Assembly (NCBI RefSeq): GCF_003334315.1
Contig: NZ_QOWR01000082.1
Direction: 5' to 3' (one strand)
Length of the DNA stretch: 13,470 nt
Source of the DNA: Escherichia coli
GTDB lineage: Bacteria > Pseudomonadota > Gammaproteobacteria > Enterobacterales > Enterobacteriaceae
In this document: piece after piece, positions 1-13,470 of the stretch
Position numbering within the stretch: position 1 is the stretch's first letter
Layout of the letters: each line of letters begins with the position of its first letter
Program-made: the position numbers and the translations under genes
The notes under the pieces: generated by a model
Told to the model about the DNA's origin: nothing
Databases searched by the model: none
The model's input: only the letters and a program-made list of their open reading frames with translations

Positions 1-149
1 GGTTGAGAAGCGGTGTAAGTGAACTGCAGTTGCCATGTTTTACGGCAGTGAGAGCAGAGATAGCGCTGATGTCCGGCGGTGCTTTTGCCGTTACGCACCA
101 CCCCGTCAGTAGCTGAACAGGAGGGACAGCTGATAGAAACAGAAGCCAC
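1..149 (-). CDS. insA: InsA (IS1 transposition regulator), N-terminal part; CDS runs off the window
   Basis: Minus-strand GTG at 149..147 followed by codons for [49 protein letters not shown], the known InsA N-terminus with its zinc-finger CxxC...CxxC. Not in the ORF track because it has no stop inside the window. Confidence 0.85.
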
Positions 150-204
150 TGGAGCACCTCAAAAACACCATCATACACTAAATCAGTAAGTTGGCATCAT
201 CACC
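1..204 (-). mobile_element. IS1: IS1 insertion sequence, left-end 204 bp; the element continues beyond the window start
   Basis: Reverse complement of 1..204 reads ggtgatgatgccaacttactgatttagtgtatgatggtgtttttgaggtgctccagtggcttctgtttc..., matching the IS1 terminal inverted repeat and 5' region as I recall them (one mismatch in the IR). The element boundary at 204/205 abuts yafO codon 20. Confidence 0.9.
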
Positions 205-264
205 CGCATCAAGTTCCTCTGCTGTAAGTTGCAGGCGAATAAGTTTTGTTTTGAATACCCGCAT
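205..264 (-). pseudogene. yafO: yafO (toxin of the yafN-yafO module), 5' remnant of 20 native codons interrupted by IS1
   Basis: Minus-strand ATG at 264..262, two nt after the yafN stop, encodes MRVFKTKLIRLQLTAEELDA, which matches the YafO N-terminus. The frame then enters the IS1 inverted repeat (GDDANLLI) and stops at 177..175. Confidence 0.8.
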
Positions 265-266
265 CC

Positions 267-560
267 TTATTCCTTAAAGTCATTGAAATCATCATCCGTC
301 ATATCATTAAGATATTTTTCAGCTCGGCGTGTAATTTCCTCTAATCTTGCAGCACTTGGACGGAAGCGCGCCTTTATGGGCTTTTTCTCCTCTTGTTCAG
401 CAAGCATGTCCATTAACGCTTCGAATGCGCTGGCACTTAAGAGATATCCTGCGGGGCGATTATTAGAAAGAACCGCAACCGGTTGATCAATAAAGTATTT
501 AGCTGGGTTTTTACGTAACTCAGTAATATTGACCGATTTTTCAGCGAGAATTCGATGCAT
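267..560 (-). CDS. yafN: YafN antitoxin (Phd/YefM-like), 97 aa
   Basis: The 97-aa ORF MHRILAEKSVNITELRKNPAKYF... matches K-12 YafN in length and sequence; ATG start at 560..558; sits 51 bp downstream of dinB on the same strand. Confidence 0.93.
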   Translation of the reverse strand: MHRILAEKSVNITELRKNPAKYFIDQPVAVLSNNRPAGYLLSASAFEALMDMLAEQEEKKPIKARFRPSAARLEEITRRAEKYLNDMTDDDFNDFKE

Positions 561-611
561 GCAGTGATCCCCTCATAATAATGCACACCAGAATAGACAT
601 AATAGTATACA

Positions 612-1667
612 TCATAATCCCAGCACCAGTTGTCTTTCCATTTGCGGATCAAGCAACGTCACATGCAGCCCCACCAGTCGCACACCGCGCCCGCCGCGGC
701 GTTCATCCCAGGTTTTACGCGCGGTGGCGATTAAGTCAGCTTTATTCAGCCGCGGCCAGACGTGCTCCTGAGTGGTTTGCTGAAAATCGTCGAACTTTAA
801 TTTCACCCCCTGGCGGGCAATCAGTAAATCAGGTTTTACCTTTGCCAGACGGCGTTCAAGTTCCGGATACAGCCGCTCGATAATCGCTTCACATTCAGAC
901 CAGTGGTGGATATCTTCCGCCATCGTGCGTTCCACGCCGACGGATTTTCGCAACCGTTCGCTGTTAACGTCGCGCTCGTCAATCCCCTGACTACGCTCCC
1001 ACAAAATGCGGCCAAATTTGCCAAAGCGTTTAAGCAGCATCACCAGATCACACTTTTGTACATCACCGCAGGTTCGTAGCCCCATCGCTTCCAGTTTTGC
1101 CGCCGAGACTTTGCCGACGCCGGGGATTTTTGCCAGTGGTAAGGTTTGTAAAAATGCCGGAACTTCTGCCGGCGTAATCACAAACTGGCCGTTGGGTTTA
1201 TTCATGTCGGAGGCGATTTTGGCGAGAAACTTTACGGGTGCCACGCCCGCAGACGCCGTCAGTTGCAGCTCGTTGAAAATCGTCTGGCGGATTTCCTGGG
1301 CGATGAGGGTCGCAGAACCGTGGCAATGGACGCTATCGGTGACGTCGAGATAAGCCTCATCCAGTGACAACGGTTCAATACGCGAGGTGTAGCGCGAGAA
1401 GATTTCGCGGATATGATTTGAGGCTTCTTTGTAGGCGTCAAAGCGCCCCGGAAGCAAGGTGAGATGCGGGCATAATTTGAGCGCCATCCCTGTCGGCATA
1501 GCGCTACGTACGCCAAATTTACGCGCGGGATAATTGGCGGTGCTGATCACCCCCCGACGTTCGCGGCTGCCGCCAATAGCAATAGGGATATCGCGCAGGG
1601 CGGGATTGTCGCGCATCTCCACTGCGGCGAAAAAGCAGTCCATATCCACATGAATGATTTTACGCAT
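612..1667 (-). CDS. dinB: DNA polymerase IV (Y-family translesion polymerase), 351 aa
   Basis: The 351-aa [36 protein letters not shown]... carries the Y-family catalytic motif ([10 protein letters not shown]) and matches DinB in length; ATG at 1667..1665 preceded by a GAGGTG Shine-Dalgarno. Confidence 0.97.
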
Positions 1668-1681
1668 TACTCACCTCTCAA

Positions 1682-1701
1682 CACTGGTAAAGTATACAGT
1701 G
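1682..1701. promoter_or_regulatory. LexA operator (SOS box) of dinB
   Basis: cactggtaaagtatacagtg, whose reverse complement is CACTGTATACTTTACCAGTG (CTGT-N8-CCAG, one mismatch to the CTGT-N8-ACAG consensus), lies about 15-35 bp upstream of the dinB start. Confidence 0.8.
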
Positions 1702-1737
1702 ATTTCAGGGTTTGAGAAATGCGTAAAGATTCAGCAT

Positions 1738-2467
1738 TTAGCGCGTTCGCTGCGAAAGCACCTGCTGCTTATCCAGCTTTTGCACCAGCGGCTGCACCAC
1801 TTTATCCCCATGCTGACCAAAGTATTGATACAGCGTATCGGACGCACTTTTGGTCAGCACCATAATCTCGATGCGCCGATTACCCGCACTTTGCGGATTC
1901 TTCGCGTCCAGCAGCATCTGGTCCGCCATTGCGCTTACCTGCATCACTTTATCTTCCGGCATTCCGGCCTCTTCCAGCACCCGACGAGCCGAAAGCGCGC
2001 GGTCACCCGAAAGGTTCCAGTTGTTGTAGATATTGTTTTTGTAGGCCATCGCATCGGTATGCCCGGTAATAATAATTTTATTATCGAGCGAGTCGAACAC
2101 TGGCGCGAGCTCCACCAGCAGCGTTTTAAAGAACGGCATAATCTTCGCGCTGCCGCGTTCAAACATATTGCGGTTCTGGTCATCTTTAATCAGCACGCGC
2201 AATCCCTGGGGAACAATCTCCATCTCCAGATTCGCTTCCATATGCGCATCACGGGCAATGGTGTTGATACTGGTTGCCAGCTCGCCAAGCTCGGTGGCGG
2301 ATTTCTTCTTCAGCAGCGCTGTTTTCTCGTTGACGTCTCGCGCTTTTTTCTCCGTCTCTTCCGGCACCGCCACGGTGGCAGGTTTTGGCGGATGAGACGG
2401 GCTGATTTTATTTAACGGCGACAATCCGCCGCCACTGAAAATCGACTGCCCGTGCAGCGCGGCGATA
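1738..2467 (-). pseudogene. lafU: lafU (mbhA), 5'-truncated MotB-like gene of the lateral flagellar (Flag-2) system; upstream boundary approximate
   Basis: The minus ORF 1738..2628 contains a MotB/OmpA-like C-terminal domain (LRVLIKDDQNRNMFERGS...IIITGHTDAMAYKNNIYNNWNLSGDRALSARRVL) but no N-terminal transmembrane helix. Its first ~50 codons are antisense lfhA sequence, so the real remnant starts somewhere around 2450-2490. Confidence 0.75.
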
Positions 2468-4207
<1,740 letters not shown>

Positions 4208-4230
4208 GTATCCAGCATTGGTGCACAACT

Positions 4231-4418
4231 GCCGGATGCGGCGTGAACGCCTTATCCGTCCTACCGTTCAGGCACAAGTTTGTAGGCATGATAAGACGCG
4301 CCAGCGTCGCATCAGGCATCTGCGCATAACTGCCGGATGCGGCATAAACGCCTTATCCGGCCTACCGATCCGGCACAAGTTTGTAGGCATGATAAGACGC
4401 GCTAGCGTCGCATCAGGC
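4231..4418. repeat. BIME: four REP (repetitive extragenic palindrome) units in alternating orientation
   Basis: gccggatgcggcgtgaacgccttatccgtcctac (4231-4264), tgtaggcatgataagacgcgccagcgtcgcatcaggc (4281-4317), gccggatgcggcataaacgccttatccggcctac (4332-4365), tgtaggcatgataagacgcgctagcgtcgcatcaggc (4382-4418). Confidence 0.85.
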
Positions 4419-4430
4419 ATCTGCGCACAA

Positions 4431-4928
4431 TTATGAAATGATACGCTCCCCGGCACTAAAATCCGTTACGTCCCCCGCCCAATCGATGGGATATAACCCT
4501 CGCGCGACATCGCGATGGAACGTTGAGAATGGCCAATCACTCACTTGCTTTACCCAACCATGCTTTACTGGATTTATATAAATATAATCAACATGATGCC
4601 TATAATCTTTGGTATTGCGGATGGCGTGCTCCCAAAAACGTGGTTGCCAGATATTTTTCAATCCACAAGCATGGGTAAATTGCTTTTTAATTTCCCGCCA
4701 GCGCGAGGAAAAATCATCATCGCCTTCAGGTAATGTCCAGATACAGTGCATATGCTCTGGCAAAACGACCCAGGCGTTGATTTCAAAAGGCCTGTCTCGC
4801 TTAACTTTAATAATGGCGTGACGGAGCATCTGGTACTGGGTGGTCAAGAGTTGGCTTCGACGATTGCGTAAATTCACCGTGAAAAACCAGGTTCCCCCCT
4901 TGATGTAATAACGACGATATTCAGACAT
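4431..4928 (-). CDS. rayT: RayT (YafM), REP-associated tyrosine transposase of the HuH / IS200-IS605 TnpA-like family, 165 aa
   Basis: The 165-aa ORF has the HuH motif (PEHMHCIW) and a C-terminal tyrosine region (YRHHVDYIYINPVKHGW); ATG at 4928..4926; REP clusters lie on both sides. Confidence 0.92.
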   Translation of the reverse strand: MSEYRRYYIKGGTWFFTVNLRNRRSQLLTTQYQMLRHAIIKVKRDRPFEINAWVVLPEHMHCIWTLPEGDDDFSSRWREIKKQFTHACGLKNIWQPRFWEHAIRNTKDYRHHVDYIYINPVKHGWVKQVSDWPFSTFHRDVARGLYPIDWAGDVTDFSAGERIIS

Positions 4929-5022
4929 GGCGACTCCTTTTTCTCAACGGTAAGAAGAAAAGGAAAGGTCGGCAATGAGGTGATGGAATAACAGGAAAGC
5001 GGCTCGCAAAAACGCACAGATT

Positions 5023-5853
<831 letters not shown>

Positions 5854-6030
5854 TCTCAATAATGGCTGGTCATGCATTGATGTTACAGTGTATCCCGGCC
5901 CGTACCTGAACAAACTTAATAAACCATTATTATAAAATTAATAAATATATTTCAGTTAATTATGTAAAAACATCCGTTTATTAAATTACTCATGGATTGT
6001 CGCTGTTGCTCATTTGAGCTACAATTCAAG

Positions 6031-6046
6031 CTGAATAAATATACAG
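6031..6046. promoter_or_regulatory. LexA operator (SOS box) upstream of dinJ-yafQ
   Basis: ctgaataaatatacag (CTGA-N8-ACAG, one mismatch to consensus) lies 17 bp upstream of the dinJ ATG, in an AT-rich divergent promoter region shared with yafL. Confidence 0.7.
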
Positions 6047-6062
6047 CACAGGAGATCCCCCA

Positions 6063-6323
6063 ATGGCTGCTAACGCGTTTGTTCGCGCCCGAATCGATGA
6101 AGATCTGAAGAATCAGGCGGCGGACGTACTGGCCGGGATGGGGCTGACCATCTCTGACCTGGTTCGCATAACCCTCACAAAGGTCGCGCGTGAAAAGGCA
6201 TTGCCGTTTGATTTACGCGAGCCTAATCAATTAACCATTCAATCAATCAAAAACAGCGAAGCTGGCGTTGATGTTCATAAGGCCAAAGACGCCGATGATT
6301 TATTTGATAAATTAGGAATTTAA
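6063..6323 (+). CDS. dinJ: DinJ antitoxin (RHH/RelB-like), 86 aa
   Basis: The 86-aa ORF MAANAFVRARIDEDLKNQAADVLAGMGLTISDLVRITLTKVAREKALPF... is preceded by an AGGAG Shine-Dalgarno; its stop is 2 nt before the yafQ ATG. Confidence 0.95.
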   Translation: MAANAFVRARIDEDLKNQAADVLAGMGLTISDLVRITLTKVAREKALPFDLREPNQLTIQSIKNSEAGVDVHKAKDADDLFDKLGI

Positions 6324-6325
6324 AT

Positions 6326-6604
6326 ATGATTCAAAGGGATATTGAATACTCGGGACAATTTTCAAAGGATGTAAAACTTGCACAAAAGCGTCATAAGGAT
6401 ATGAATAAATTGAAATATCTTATGACGCTTCTTATCAATAATGCTTTACCGCTTCCAGCTGTTTATAAAGACCACCCGCTGCAAGGTTCATGGAAAGGTT
6501 ATCGCGATGCTCATGTCGAACCGGACTGGATCCTGATTTACAAACTTACCGATAAACTTTTACGATTTGAGAGAACTGGAACTCACGCGGCGCTCTTTGG
6601 GTAA
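6326..6604 (+). CDS. yafQ: YafQ toxin (RelE-family ribosome-dependent mRNA endoribonuclease), 92 aa
   Basis: The 92-aa ORF MIQRDIEYSGQFSKDVKLAQKRHKD... is translationally coupled to dinJ (taaatATG). Confidence 0.95.
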   Translation: MIQRDIEYSGQFSKDVKLAQKRHKDMNKLKYLMTLLINNALPLPAVYKDHPLQGSWKGYRDAHVEPDWILIYKLTDKLLRFERTGTHAALFG

Positions 6605-6759
6605 AGCACGCTGCCGATGAAATTTGTAAACCCTGCGCCGACAGGCTTGCGTAAAACTCTTTTGGTGATAATGTGAGCCTTCCAAATCCAGACTATTCCG
6701 ATTTGGGATCTATTTTGCCGTCCTGGCGTGTGTAACCGTTTTATCAAGGAATAAGCAGT

Positions 6760-7500
6760 ATGCGTAAAATCGCATTAATTCTTGCGATGTTGTTGATCCC
6801 GTGCGTTTCGTTTGCCGGTTTGCTGGGCAGCAGTAGCTCGACCACGCCAGTGAGCAAAGAGTATAAGCAGCAGTTGATGGGATCCCCTGTCTACATCCAG
6901 ATCTTCAAGGAAGAACGTACGCTCGATCTCTACGTCAAAATGGGCGAGCAATATCAACTGCTCGACAGCTATAAAATCTGTAAATATTCCGGCGGCTTAG
7001 GGCCAAAACAGCGTCAGGGCGATTTCAAAAGCCCGGAAGGGTTTTATAGCGTCCAGCGTAATCAGTTAAAACCAGACAGCCGTTACTACAAAGCGATTAA
7101 TATTGGTTTCCCCAATGCCTATGACCGTGCGCATGGTTATGAAGGGAAATACCTGATGATCCACGGCGATTGTGTTTCCATCGGCTGCTACGCAATGACC
7201 AATCAGGGTATTGATGAGATATTCCAGTTCGTTACTGGTGCGCTGGTGTTTGGTCAGCCGAGCGTGCAAGTGAGTATTTACCCGTTCCGCATGACCGACG
7301 CCAATATGAAGCGCCATAAATATTCCAACTTTAAGGACTTCTGGGAGCAGCTGAAGCCGGGTTACGACTACTTTGAGCAAACCCGTAAGCCACCAACCGT
7401 TTCTGTGGTCAATGGTCGTTACGTGGTCAGCAAGCCGTTAAGCCACGAAGTTGTGCAGCCACAACTGGCATCAAACTACACGCTCCCCGAGGCAAAATAA
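6760..7500 (+). CDS. yafK: YafK (DpaA/LdtF), YkuD-fold L,D-transpeptidase-like periplasmic protein, 246 aa
   Basis: Signal peptide [19 protein letters not shown] followed by a YkuD-like catalytic region ([18 protein letters not shown] with a conserved Cys); AAGGA Shine-Dalgarno upstream of ATG 6760. Confidence 0.92.
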
Positions 7501-8238
7501 GCGCCATTCGCCTGGCATAATCTTTTGCCAGGTTTCATTGCCCGTCAGCGGCTGTGTTGCAATCACCGTGACCACATCATTCGGTGTGGTCTGCGAGCTG
7601 AAGTCGATTTCCACATCCTGATCCAGCAACGTTGCCACGCCAAACGGCGCGCGGCGGGTGATCCAGTGTAAATTAGTCGAGCAATACGCCATTACATAGC
7701 GACCGTCCGAAAGCAGCATGTTGAAAACGCCCTTCGCCCGCAGTTCATCCGCCAGTGAGGCGATATATTTAAACACTGCCGCCATGTTGCCCGGCGTGCG
7801 CGGGTAACGCTGCGTTAATTTATGCAGGAGCCAGCAAAAGGCTTTTTCGCTGTCGGTTTCGCCTACCGGGCGGAAGTTGCCGGTTTCCAGTGATTTGTAG
7901 CCCGTCAGTTGTCCGTTATGGGCATAAGTCCAGTTACGCCCCCATAACTCGCGGGTAAATGGGTGAGTATTTTCCAGCGCCACCTCGCCCCGATTAGCCT
8001 GGCGAATATGAGCCACCACCGAACAGGATTTTATCGGGTAGTCCTGGACAAGTTTGGCGATGGGGGAATTAAAGCTGGGTTGTGGATCTTTAAATGTGCG
8101 ACAGCCTTTACCTTCGTAAAAGGTAATGCCCCAGCCATCTTTATGTGGCCCGGTTCCACCACCACGCTGTACAAGCCCGGTGAAACTAAAGCAGATATCG
8201 GTAGGGACGTTGGCGCTCATCCCGAGCAATTCGCACAT
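7471..8238 (-). CDS. yafJ: YafJ, class II (Ntn-type) glutamine amidotransferase-like protein, 255 aa
   Basis: Starts [19 protein letters not shown]: a Cys at position 2 after Met is the hallmark of Ntn class II GATases. GGAGG Shine-Dalgarno 7 nt upstream of ATG 8238..8236; the track ORF is extended 5 codons by a TTG. Confidence 0.9.
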
Positions 8239-8302
8239 GGGTAACCTCCACAACAGCGGGAGCGCATGGCCCCCGGCGAAGATTGATTTAAGAATTTTCA
8301 GG

Positions 8303-8436
8303 TCGGATGCGGCGTGAACGCATTATTCGGCCTACGGTTCGCGTACAGATTTGTAGGCATGATAAGACGCGTCAGCGTCGCATCAGGCATCAGCGCACAA
8401 ATGCCGGATGCGGCGTAAACGTCTTATCCGGCCTAC
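8303..8436. repeat. BIME: three REP units between gmhA and yafJ
   Basis: tcggatgcggcgtgaacgcattattcggcctac (8303-8335), tgtaggcatgataagacgcgtcagcgtcgcatcaggc (8352-8388), gccggatgcggcgtaaacgtcttatccggcctac (8403-8436). Confidence 0.85.
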
Positions 8437-8443
8437 GCCAGAC

Positions 8444-9022
8444 TTACTTAACCATCTCTTTTTCAATCAACTGGATCAGGATATGGATCACTTTAATGTG
8501 AATCTCCTGAATGCGGTCGGCATAACCAAAGTGCGGTACGCGAATTTCGATATCCGCCGTGCCAGCCATTTTGCCGCCGTCTTTACCGGTCAGGGTGATC
8601 ACTTTCATTCCCTTCTCACGCGCCGCTGCGATCGCTTTGATCACGTTTGCAGAGTTACCGGAGGTGGAGATCCCCAGCAGTACATCGCCTTCGCGACCTA
8701 CCGCTTCAACGTAGCGGGAGAAAATATCATTGAAACCGAAATCATTACCGACGCAGGAAATATGACTAACGTCAGAAATAGCAATCGCCGGGTAGCCCGG
8801 ACGGTTTTCACGGTAGCGACCGGTCAACTCTTCGGCAAAGTGCATAGCGTCGCAATGGGAACCGCCGTTGCCGCAGGAAAGCACTTTGCCACCGGCTTTA
8901 AAGCTGTCTGCTAACAGGACCGCCGCGCGCTGAATGGCGTGAATATTGGCGTCATCTTTTAAAAAGTTAGCCAGCGTTTCCGCCGCTTCGTTCAGTTCGT
9001 TACGAATAAGATCCTGGTACAT
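8444..9022 (-). CDS. gmhA: GmhA (LpcA), sedoheptulose-7-phosphate isomerase (SIS domain), 192 aa
   Basis: [20 protein letters not shown]...[18 protein letters not shown] matches GmhA; ATG at 9022..9020 with an AAGGA Shine-Dalgarno. The track ORF is extended 11 codons from an upstream TTG. Confidence 0.95.
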
Positions 9023-9223
9023 GAGGATATCCTTCAGCATAAATGTAATAGACAAAATGCAGTGTACCGGATACCGCCAAAAGCGAGAAGTACGGGCAGG
9101 TGCTATGACCAGGACTTTTTGACCTGAAGTGCGGATAAAAACAGCAACAATGTGAGCTTTGTTGTAATTATATTGTAAACATATTGCTAAATGTTTTTAC
9201 ATCCACTACAACCATATCATCAC

Positions 9224-9240
9224 AAGTGGTCAGACCTCCT
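9224..9240. promoter_or_regulatory. FadR operator in the fadE promoter
   Basis: aagtggtcagacctcct contains the TGGTCnGACCT core of FadR operators and lies about 25-40 bp upstream of the fadE ATG. Confidence 0.65.
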
Positions 9241-9261
9241 ACAAGTAAGGGGCTTTTCGTT

Positions 9262-11706
9262 ATGATGATTTTGAGTATTCTCGCTACGGTTGTCCTGCTC
9301 GGCGCGTTGTTCTATCACCGCGTGAGCTTATTTATCAGCAGTCTGATTTTGCTCGCCTGGACAGCCGCCCTCGGCGTTGCTGGTCTGTGGTCGGCGTGGG
9401 TACTGGTGCCTCTGGCCATTATCCTCGTGCCATTTAACTTTGCGCCTATGCGTAAGTCGATGATTTCCGCGCCGGTATTTCGCGGTTTCCGTAAGGTGAT
9501 GCCGCCGATGTCGCGCACTGAGAAAGAAGCGATTGATGCGGGCACCACCTGGTGGGAGGGCGACTTGTTCCAGGGCAAGCCGGACTGGAAAAAGCTGCAT
9601 AACTATCCGCAGCCGCGCCTGACCGCCGAAGAGCAAGCGTTTCTCGACGGCCCGGTAGAAGAAGCCTGCCGGATGGCGAATGATTTCCAGATCACCCATG
9701 AGCTGGCGGATCTGCCGCCGGAGTTGTGGGCGTACCTTAAAGAGCATCGTTTCTTCGCGATGATCATCAAAAAAGAGTACGGCGGGCTGGAGTTCTCGGC
9801 TTATGCCCAGTCTCGCGTGCTGCAAAAACTCTCCGGCGTGAGCGGGATCCTGGCGATTACCGTCGGCGTGCCAAACTCATTAGGCCCGGGCGAACTGTTG
9901 CAACATTACGGCACTGACGAGCAGAAAGATCACTATCTGCCGCGTCTGGCGCGTGGTCAGGAGATCCCCTGCTTTGCACTGACCAGCCCGGAAGCGGGTT
10001 CCGATGCGGGCGCGATTCCGGACACCGGGATTGTCTGCATGGGCGAATGGCAGGGCCAGCAGGTGCTGGGGATGCGTCTGACCTGGAACAAACGCTACAT
10101 TACGCTGGCACCGATTGCGACCGTGCTTGGGCTGGCGTTTAAACTCTCCGACCCGGAAAAATTACTCGGCGGTGCAGAAGATTTAGGCATTACCTGTGCG
10201 CTGATCCCAACCACCACGCCGGGCGTGGAAATTGGTCGTCGCCACTTCCCGCTGAACGTACCGTTCCAGAACGGACCGACGCGCGGTAAAGATGTCTTCG
10301 TGCCGATCGATTACATCATCGGCGGGCCGAAAATGGCCGGGCAAGGCTGGCGGATGCTGGTGGAGTGCCTCTCGGTAGGCCGCGGCATCACCCTGCCTTC
10401 CAACTCAACCGGCGGCGTGAAATCGGTAGCGCTGGCAACCGGCGCGTATGCTCACATTCGCCGTCAGTTCAAAATCTCTATTGGTAAGATGGAAGGGATT
10501 GAAGAGCCGCTGGCGCGTATTGCCGGTAATGCCTACGTGATGGATGCTGCGGCATCGCTGATTACCTACGGCATTATGCTCGGCGAAAAACCTGCCGTGC
10601 TGTCGGCTATCGTTAAGTATCACTGTACCCACCGCGGGCAGCAGTCGATTATTGATGCGATGGATATTACCGGCGGTAAAGGCATTATGCTCGGGCAAAG
10701 CAACTTCCTGGCGCGTGCTTACCAGGGCGCACCGATTGCCATCACCGTTGAAGGGGCTAACATTCTGACCCGCAGCATGATGATCTTCGGACAAGGAGCG
10801 ATTCGTTGCCATCCGTACGTGCTGGAAGAGATGGAAGCGGCGAAGAACAATGACGTCAACGCGTTCGATAAACTGTTGTTCAAACATATCGGTCACGTCG
10901 GTAGCAACAAAGTTCGCAGCTTCTGGCTGGGCCTGACGCGCGGTTTAACCAGCAGCACGCCAACCGGCGATGCCACTAAACGCTACTATCAGCACCTGAA
11001 CCGCCTGAGCGCCAACCTCGCCCTGCTTTCTGATGTCTCGATGGCAGTGCTGGGCGGCAGCCTGAAACGTCGCGAGCGCATCTCGGCCCGTCTGGGGGAT
11101 ATTTTAAGCCAGCTCTACCTCGCCTCTGCCGTGCTGAAGCGTTATGACGACGAAGGCCGTAATGAAGCCGACCTGCCGCTGGTGCACTGGGGCGTACAAG
11201 ATGCGCTGTATCAGGCTGAACAGGCGATGGATGATTTACTGCAAAACTTCCCGAACCGCGTGGTTGCCGGGCTGCTGAATGTGGTGATCTTCCCGACCGG
11301 ACGTCATTATCTGGCACCTTCTGACAAGCTGGATCATAAAGTGGCGAAGATTTTACAAGTGCCGAACGCCACCCGTTCCCGCATTGGTCGCGGTCAGTAC
11401 CTGACGCCGAGCGAGCATAATCCGGTTGGCTTGCTGGAAGAGGCGCTGGTGGATGTGATTGCCGCCGACCCAATTCATCAGCGGATCTGTAAAGAGCTGG
11501 GTAAAAACCTGCCGTTTACCCGTCTGGATGAACTGGCGCACAACGCGCTGGTGAAGGGGCTGATTGATAAAGATGAAGCCGCTATTCTGGTGAAAGCTGA
11601 AGAAAGCCGTCTGCGCAGTATTAACGTTGATGACTTTGATCCGGAAGAGCTGGCGACGAAGCCGGTAAAGTTGCCGGAGAAAGTGCGGAAAGTTGAAGCC
11701 GCGTAA
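9262..11706 (+). CDS. fadE: FadE, acyl-CoA dehydrogenase of fatty-acid beta-oxidation, 814 aa
   Basis: Long ORF with an N-terminal membrane-anchor-like region ([17 protein letters not shown]...) and acyl-CoA dehydrogenase domains. The start is taken at ATG 9262 (814 aa) rather than the track ATG at 9184, because the FadR operator at 9224-9240 falls inside the extension. Confidence 0.95.
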
Positions 11707-11712
11707 ATGAAT

Positions 11713-11740
11713 AACGGAGCCGAAAGGCTCCGTTTCTTTA
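11713..11740. terminator. Rho-independent terminator hairpin between convergent fadE and ivy, probably bidirectional
   Basis: aacggagcc-gaaa-ggctccgtt forms a 9-bp stem with a 4-nt loop, followed by tctttat on the plus strand and a T-rich run on the minus strand. It sits 7 nt after the fadE stop and 9 nt after the ivy stop. Confidence 0.6.
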
Positions 11741-11748
11741 TCCGCTAA

Positions 11749-12222
11749 TTATTTAAAATTAAAGCCATCCGGATGGTTTTCCAGGCTGCCGGTCAACGCC
11801 GCGAACAACACCGTTTTACCATCAATCGAAAGCGCATCGTTCACATTCAGCCAGGTGAGTTTCTCTTGCGACGTTTTCTCATCAATAGTCGAGAACAGCC
11901 CCGTCATCTGATTAGATTTCTCGGACCACATCACAGCGATACGTTGCGAGCCACAGTCATGCGGTTTGCACGCGCTCATCACCTGATACGTCTCATCTCC
12001 CAACGTTACGGTTTGTGCGGGAGTATAAGTACCGCCTTTCATCACCCAGGCAGGCAGCTTATGCCCTTGTACCATCTGATTAAATGCAGCTTTGGTGGTT
12101 TCGCCCTTTGCAAGGCTGCTAATGGTTAAATCATCCTGCGCCATTGCACTGGTGGCGATGACCAGAGCGGCGACTGTCGTTATTGCCTTAAACATCATTC
12201 CTCCCGAGCTTATCCTGCCCAT
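11749..12222 (-). CDS. ivy: Ivy, periplasmic inhibitor of vertebrate (C-type) lysozyme, 157 aa
   Basis: The 157-aa ORF has a signal peptide (MGRISSGGMMFKAITTVAALVIATSAMA) and the CKPHDC loop characteristic of Ivy; AGGAGG Shine-Dalgarno 8 nt upstream of ATG 12222..12220. Confidence 0.93.
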   Translation of the reverse strand: MGRISSGGMMFKAITTVAALVIATSAMAQDDLTISSLAKGETTKAAFNQMVQGHKLPAWVMKGGTYTPAQTVTLGDETYQVMSACKPHDCGSQRIAVMWSEKSNQMTGLFSTIDEKTSQEKLTWLNVNDALSIDGKTVLFAALTGSLENHPDGFNFK

Positions 12223-12375
12223 GTTATTAACCTCCTAAAGCCTGGCGATAACACGATAATTTGCAAATCAGATATTTCCAATATCAGCATTTGTTATCAA
12301 TTTATTCTGCGCTAAGGCAACTGCCTGATAAGGTGTTAAAGTTATAAAACCCTTCGCATAAAGGAGTTGTACACC

Positions 12376-13146
12376 GTGCCTGGTTTGAAGATTACGCTTT
12401 TGCAGCAACCACTGGTGTGGATGGATGGTCCTGCCAACCTGCGTCATTTTGATCGTCAACTGGAAGGTATTACCGGGCGCGATGTGATCGTTCTACCGGA
12501 GATGTTTACCAGCGGCTTTGCCATGGAAGCGGCAGCTTCGTCGCTAGCACAAGATGACGTAGTGAACTGGATGACAGCTAAGGCGCAGCAGTGCAATGCG
12601 CTGATTGCAGGCAGTGTTGCATTACAAACGGAGTCTGGTTCGGTTAACCGCTTTTTGCTGGTTGAGCCGGGCGGCACGGTACATTTTTATGATAAGCGTC
12701 ATCTGTTCCGCATGGCAGATGAGCATCTACATTATAAAGCGGGCAATGCGCGAGTGATTGTGGAATGGCGCGGCTGGCGTATTTTGCCGCTGGTGTGCTA
12801 CGACTTACGTTTTCCTGTGTGGTCGCGCAATCTCAACGATTATGACCTCGCCCTGTACGTCGCCAACTGGCCTGCTCCGCGCTCTCTGCACTGGCAGGCA
12901 TTGCTGACGGCCCGCGCGATTGAGAATCAGGCGTATGTGGCGGGATGCAATCGCGTCGGCAGCGATGGCAACGGCTGCCATTATCGCGGTGACAGCCGGG
13001 TGATTAATCCGCAAGGAGAGATTATCGCTACTGCCGACGCGCATCAGGCAACGCGCATTGATGCGGAGCTGTCGATGGCAGCATTGCGGGAATATAGAGA
13101 AAAGTTTCCGGCATGGCAGGATGCGGATGAGTTTAGGTTGTGGTGA
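12376..13146 (+). CDS. yafV: YafV, nitrilase-superfamily (CN-hydrolase) omega-amidase / 2-oxoglutaramate amidase, 256 aa with GTG start
   Basis: CN-hydrolase fold with a probable catalytic triad (E in VLPEMF, K in FYDKRHLF, C in LVCYDLRFP). AAGGAG at 12361-12366 is 9 nt upstream of GTG 12376; the track ATG at 12367 directly abuts the Shine-Dalgarno and is an unlikely start. Confidence 0.88.
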   Translation: MPGLKITLLQQPLVWMDGPANLRHFDRQLEGITGRDVIVLPEMFTSGFAMEAAASSLAQDDVVNWMTAKAQQCNALIAGSVALQTESGSVNRFLLVEPGGTVHFYDKRHLFRMADEHLHYKAGNARVIVEWRGWRILPLVCYDLRFPVWSRNLNDYDLALYVANWPAPRSLHWQALLTARAIENQAYVAGCNRVGSDGNGCHYRGDSRVINPQGEIIATADAHQATRIDAELSMAALREYREKFPAWQDADEFRLW

Positions 13147-13186
13147 GTGGGGGTTGTGTTTAAGGACGGGGAGAGTCGGGGTATTA

Positions 13187-13470
13187 CTACGAAAGCCCGC
13201 TCCCCGCAAGGACTGACGCCAGGTAGTTTCTGTCCATGGCTGCTTTTCGCATCTTACGTCTTAACCCTGCCTTGAATACCTTCTCATTCGTCAAAATATT
13301 AATAGCAATGTGCCGTATCCCTGAAAATAATTCTGCTGCGTTTCCTCTTCTTATTTTGTAGTCGTCTTCATTCATTACCACGTCCAGACGCCTGTGCAGC
13401 TTATTCTCCACGTGCCAGTGGTTTCGGATTGCTGTGGCGAACTTCTCTGCGGTTAAATCAGCAGAACTGA
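13187..13470 (-). mobile_element. ISAs1-family (H-repeat-associated) transposase, C-terminal portion; the reading frame continues beyond the window end
   Basis: The minus-strand frame reads ...[93 protein letters not shown], with the HWHVENKLH...RGNAAE signature of ISAs1/H-repeat transposase C-termini. The track's 74-aa ORF is only the part after an internal GTG. Confidence 0.7.

Follow-up and report, generated by a model that had tools for sequence, protein, structure and literature searches.

The window, meaning the whole stretch of 13,470 nucleotides analysed here, carries dinB, yafN and the beginning of yafO near its left end, in the order known from K-12, and then passes directly into the left end of an IS1 element that continues beyond the window (Table 1). 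In MG1655, by comparison, the dinB-yafN-yafO-yafP operon is intact. The upstream part of the operon is complete in the window. YafN matched NF007300 over residues 1-97 of 97 (196.7 bits, cutoff 99) and carries the substitution Q82K relative to K-12, and its gene is 100% identical at the nucleotide level to yafN of E. coli 2017.04.03CC (NZ_AP025205.2). DinB gave a full-length match to NF002677 (546.9 bits, cutoff 256), and the sequence CACTGTATACTTTACCAGTG upstream of it, which we take to be the dinB LexA box of the SOS regulon, is overlapped by a promoter-like site. These results uphold a preliminary description of this DNA, in which yafN and dinB were considered intact. The LexA box upstream of dinB is unbroken as well. 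An Rfam scan of window positions 1..1700 gave no matches.

Table 1. Features of the window (positions in nucleotides from the left end)
Feature	Position	Strand	Remarks
IS1 left (IRL) end	1..204	-	terminus at 204, rest of element leftward beyond window
insA, first 49 codons	3..149	-	GTG start at 149..147; translation and profile match
Sigma-70-like site ATGCCA-16-TATGAT	197..170	-	position agrees with known insA promoter, partly within IRL
Chimeric yafO'-IS1 ORF, 28 aa	178..264	-	MRVFKTKLIRLQLTAEELDA + GDDANLLI, then TAG
IS1 left terminal inverted repeat, variant GGTGATGATGCCAACTTACTGAT	182..204	-	direct sequence reading
yafO 5' remnant, codons 1-20, ATGCGGGTATTCAAAACAAAACTTATTCGCCTGCAACTTACAGCAGAGGAACTTGATGCG	205..264	-	60/60 nt identical to K-12 yafO
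Predicted 9-bp target-site duplication copy CTTGATGCG (yafO sense)	205..213	.	deduced from other IS1 insertions at the same locus
yafN antitoxin gene, full length, 97 aa	267..560	-	NF007300 equivalog
dinB (DNA polymerase IV)	612..1667	-	protein identical to K-12 Pol IV
LexA box of dinB promoter, CACTGTATACTTTACCAGTG	1682..1701	-	exact sequence located
Promoter-like site TTCTCA-16-TATACT	1718..1691		overlaps LexA box
Flag-2 lateral flagellar cluster remnant	1738..4207		as in K-12
lafU	1738..2523	-	part of Flag-2 remnant
flhA/lfhA pseudogene, N-terminally truncated	2489..4207	+	part of Flag-2 remnant
naRNA4 (RF02564), three matches	4285..4362, 5027..5104, 8356..8433 (-)		74-78 bits
rayT	4431..4928		REP-associated tyrosine transposase gene
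dinJ-yafQ	6063..6604		second toxin-antitoxin pair, intact
ISAs1-family (H-repeat) transposase gene, 3' end	13187..13470		full length in 2017.04.03CC

The element at the left end was identified as IS1 by comparison with annotated copies. Positions 1..204 were identical (204/204) to two copies, one of the IS1B family in NZ_AP025205.2 and one in strain JX21CE35, and differed from the annotated IS1A of K-12 MG1655 by a single C to A change at IS1 position 8 (203/204). A perfect identity of 204 nt that ends exactly at the IS terminus rules out a chance match. Native yafO continues after nucleotide 60 with TTAACGGCGG, whereas the window has GGTGATGATGCCAACTTACTG, the IS1 left inverted repeat, at this point (longer reading on the minus strand: GGTGATGATGCCAACTTACTGATTTAGTG). 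The yafO homology stops precisely at the terminal nucleotide of IS1, and the junction at 204/205 is unambiguous, the first base being T in the native gene and G in IS1. The 49-residue N-terminal fragment of InsA was recognized by NF050000 (IS1/IS1595 zinc-binding domain; 42.8 bits, cutoff 28), and insA has the same orientation as dinB-yafN-yafO. The insA promoter has been described as lying partly inside IRL (PMC3000339). A complete IS1 has 768 bp, with IRR and the insAB' frameshift, of which the window covers 204 nt of the left end; it contains one junction, and transposition is deduced from that junction.

YafO is a ribosome-dependent mRNA-interferase toxin. The part of its gene that remains in the window, which is also identical over 60/60 nt to the intact yafO of 2017.04.03CC, amounts to 15% of the full length. 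Translation runs on from the 20 YafO codons through 8 IS1-encoded codons to a stop codon that precedes the insA start by 28 nt. Against the YafO model NF007377, this chimeric product scored 21.7 bits (cutoff 153) with residues 1-20 alone aligned, compared with 245.9 bits for the intact YafO of 2017.04.03CC. The chimeric ORF is a gene remnant and no member of the YafO family, the full length of which is 132 aa, and yafO'-IS1 is a predicted null allele of yafO. The preliminary description had read the left end of the window as IS1, placed the junction at 204/205, counted exactly 20 native codons and 8 further ones before the stop, and concluded that the toxin gene was knocked out. Alignment to IS1 copies (204/204, and 203/204 for IS1A) and to K-12 yafO (60/60) returned the same coordinate, the ORF at 264..178 agrees with the codon count, and a profile match confined to the first 20 residues and far under the cutoff agrees with a knockout. 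It had further suggested that the insertion, not known from MG1655, may be strain-specific, which is borne out by the intact yafO of MG1655 and by the occurrence of the junction in 0 of 5,426 complete genomes.

The reading that we favour, with a probability of roughly 0.9, is that the junction in the window represents transposition of IS1 into yafO and a strain-specific knockout of a dispensable toxin gene. An IS1 copy would have entered the gene between nucleotides 60 and 61, producing a genuine IS1-IRL/yafO junction. Among the 5,426 complete RefSeq E. coli genomes, a 200-nt query across the junction had no contiguous match, and neither metagenome contigs nor species-representative genomes contained the exact junction strings of 37 and 25 nt (0 matches in each set); Shigella genomes and draft assemblies were outside these collections. 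A literature search for IS1 in yafO found nothing relevant. The rest of the window, 205..13470, aligned to NZ_AP025205.2 with 0 mismatches in 13,266 nt, and that genome has intact yafO and yafP and no IS1 near yafO. Since the 13.3 kb beside the element does not differ from a strain with intact yafO, the yafO::IS1 insertion is most likely a recent event on a 2017.04.03CC-like background. The IS1-yafO junction constitutes a unique marker for the source lineage and can be used in strain typing.

It is extremely unlikely that the junction is an assembly artefact in the form of a chimeric contig end within a repeat. Such an origin would fit the absence of the junction from the complete genomes, metagenome contigs and species representatives, as well as the position of the two window ends, the left one in IS1 and the right one in an ISAs1-family element, an arrangement typical of a repeat-bounded short-read contig. 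However, the break falls at the exact terminal nucleotide of the IS1 inverted repeat, a signature of transposition that a random chimera would not be expected to reproduce, and comparable insertions are frequent at the yafO-yafP locus. The junction may also have originated as a subpopulation variant or as a laboratory-acquired insertion.

Further IS1 events at this locus were found by joining matches to the IS1 end with matches to the start of yafO and then reading the loci (Table 2). Besides the one in the window, at least five independent insertions lie inside yafO (nt ~7, 135, 196, 244 and 274), with about eight more in or beside yafP; the events are regarded as independent because the element copies differ, being 91-100% identical to one another. 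Where yafO is interrupted, RefSeq annotates the copies as pseudogenes. The kind of event seen in the window is common, with IS1 recurring in yafO and yafP of other strains. At least 14 distinct IS1 sites are spread over ~650 bp of yafO-yafP in ~30 complete genomes, in both orientations and with adjacent deletions at four. The AT content is ~57-60% locally (yafO-yafP) against 48% for the window, and yafO-yafP may be a mild IS1 hot spot. A dinB-anchored control also placed IS1 at yafO nt ~7, in or beside yafN and in the dinB-yafN spacer, in at least six genomes among the matches listed, which were dominated by adjacent IS1-IS1 pairs and support no claim of enrichment.

Table 2. IS1 insertions in the yafO-yafP locus of other strains (sites in yafO nucleotides, yafP being 409..861; orientation relative to the window IS1)
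Site	Strain	Orientation	Flanking sequence
~7	KFu022	opposite	position from match spacing only
135	ATCC 8739 lineage, 5 assemblies	same	1,071-bp deletion (135/1207), yafO 3' part and yafP gone
196	23AR1101	opposite	193-bp deletion (196/390), without duplication
244	MINF_8D	opposite	9-bp duplication
274	two dog isolates, Z1323PEC0011/0013	opposite	9-bp duplication
399	seven livestock isolates	opposite	9-bp duplication; yafO remains intact
406	JX21CE35	same	216-bp deletion (407..622; 406/623), yafP 5' part lost, without duplication
422	DLI.5a	same	duplication
428	BKQ37E	same	8-bp duplication
482	AF14, 2 assemblies	same	adjacent deletion, without duplication
590	NMBU-W13E19 group, 4 assemblies	same	duplication
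482, 494, 631, 655 (yafP)	other strains	opposite	positions from match spacing only

Two of the loci showed additional features. In NZ_CP043406.1 (NMBU-W13E19), which has IS1 inside yafP, the annotation also gives yafO (2791..3189) an internal stop, a different way for the toxin gene to be the first to decay at this locus. Assemblies labelled ATCC 8739 (NC_010468.1, NZ_CP043852.1) disagree with each other: several have an IS1-truncated yafO with 136 nt left, whereas yafO is full length and 100% identical in NZ_CP043852.1 (4.80 Mb), which suggests stock divergence or mislabelling.

Ten events were characterized at both ends, and six of these are simple insertions with 8-9 bp duplications while four have lost adjacent DNA. 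Based on this 6:4 precedent at the locus, we judge a simple insertion with an 8-9 bp duplication to have a somewhat better than even chance of accounting for the window. The duplication copy at 205..213 is predicted because of the 8-9 bp duplications at the six other IS1 insertions in yafO-yafP, and the second CTTGATGCG copy would sit past the far IS1 end, beyond the window. A simple insertion would give a far side that reads GGAGTCATTACC, CTTGATGCG and TTAACGGCGG in direct succession (IRR, 9-bp duplication and yafO from nt 61 onwards) or, in a longer string that would follow after 564 further IS1 bases, AATAAGTTGGAGTCATTACC, CTTGATGCG and TTAACGGCGGATTTTATTTC. From the same precedent, an IS1-mediated adjacent deletion or an IS1-IS1 rearrangement is a substantial possibility, though short of even; the 3' part of yafO, and possibly yafP and more, would then be missing or relocated and no duplication would be present. 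For example, if an IS1 lay just downstream of yafO with IRL facing the gene, an arrangement found in JX21CE35, a deletion from it into yafO could have reached nt 60. The four events without duplication (ATCC 8739, JX21CE35, 23AR1101 and AF14) are in line with such a course, as is JX21CE35 itself, which is 99.9% identical to the window and whose IS1, 346 bp further out, agrees with the window IS1 in orientation and in sequence (100%). In contrast, the six simple insertions argue against it, as does the lack of IS1 near yafO in the closest relative, 2017.04.03CC (0 mismatches).

If IS1 has transposed into yafO as we propose, YafO would be lacking in the strain, whereas Pol IV would still be made and YafN would be left as an orphan antitoxin. 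Transcription starting at the dinB and yafN promoters would enter IS1 in the sense direction of insA. IS1 insertions are classically polar, and such polarity would cut off a surviving yafP from LexA control. The uncoupling of yafP from the SOS promoter would, however, presuppose that yafP is still there, and its presence is in doubt because 4 of the 10 comparable IS1 events lost adjacent yafO 3' and/or yafP sequence. The strain is predicted to be yafO-null and possibly yafP-silent with normal Pol IV, which bears on studies of SOS mutagenesis or of translation arrest by YafO; a yafP-silent background would also bear on YafP-dependent handling of nitroaromatics.

The arrangement also allows a reading in which SOS transcription from the dinB promoter passes through yafN and yafO' into insA and renders this IS1 copy inducible by DNA damage. 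If true, DNA damage would be linked to production of IS1 transposase, possibly with positive feedback. The co-orientation of insA with the operon and the short distance of 28 nt from the yafO' stop to the insA start are compatible with read-through, and no convincing terminator was found between yafN and insA; the one terminator-like site, a weak one, lies inside yafN, and counts of such sites are within the expectation from shuffled sequence. Moreover, the IS1 transposase InsAB' has been reported to induce SOS (Lane et al. 1994, as cited in PMC3000339). Yet the main product is InsA, which acts as a repressor and as an inhibitor of transposition (PMC3000339). The orientations at the locus, the same as that of the window IS1 at 6 sites and opposite at about 9, are without bias and give no sign of selection for co-orientation. 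Impinging transcription, furthermore, has generally been reported to lower the activity of IS1 ends, and on balance we regard damage-inducible IS1 as very unlikely.

In NZ_AP025205.2, an IS1 located at 17289..18056, about 1.6 kb past the position of the right end of the window, is identical over the 204 nt compared and has the orientation of the window IS1. If the source strain also has this copy, the ~15-kb segment from yafO' to yafV would lie between direct IS1 repeats and would be prone to deletion, amplification or moving as a composite unit. Intramolecular replicative transposition from an IS1 in that position was rejected as the origin of the junction, because whichever of its outcomes is considered, deletion or inversion, an IRR-yafO5' junction or removal of the segment is expected, and the junction observed is IRL-yafO5'. 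At the right end of the window, homology to K-12 (the yafF remnant) ends at 13467, three bases short of the window end. Elsewhere, two of the three matches to naRNA4, a REP-derived nucleoid-associated RNA, flank rayT, and the intact dinJ-yafQ pair is located 5.5 kb from the disrupted yafNO.

Loss of yafO is widespread in the species. The gene was missing in 2,582 of the 5,426 complete E. coli genomes (48%) and present in 2,844, in 2,833 of which at least 80% of it was covered. This agrees with the published estimate that ~40% of strains have lost yafNO and kept dinB-yafP (PMC3105422). Given that half of the species is without yafNO, the fitness effect of the insertion is probably negligible, and the decay of this dispensable chromosomal toxin-antitoxin pair would most likely be neutral or close to neutral. 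The allele is new and the kind of event already well known. It is a further case in which a chromosomal toxin-antitoxin pair decays through an insertion sequence that strikes the toxin first and leaves the antitoxin orphaned, and it adds to the evidence that the yafO-yafP segment repeatedly takes IS1.

Among known systems, the yafO pseudogene of ATCC 8739 (Crooks; ECOLC_RS26185) shares with the window the IS family and its orientation, with IRL facing the yafO 5' remnant, as well as intact yafN and dinB upstream and a toxin truncated near its N-terminus. The two differ in that the ATCC 8739 junction is at yafO nt 135 (codon 45) instead of nt 60 and involves an IS1 variant 95% identical over 768 bp, and its 1,071-bp deletion takes the yafO 3' part and yafP, whereas the window shows one side of the IS1 only. 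In MINF_8D (nt 244) and Z1323PEC0011/0013 (nt 274), IS1 likewise splits yafO while yafN and dinB are intact, and both halves of yafO are annotated as pseudogene fragments; unlike in the window, the IS1 is reversed, the sites are others, 9-bp duplications are seen and yafP is kept. The CFT073-type dinB-yafP two-gene operon (Gutierrez et al. 2011, PMC3105422) is similar in that YafO function is lost from the SOS-regulated dinB operon. There, however, the toxin and antitoxin genes are both precisely deleted and dinB and yafP are coupled transcriptionally and translationally through an ATGA overlap, whereas in the window yafN persists and IS1 separates dinB-yafN from whatever is downstream.
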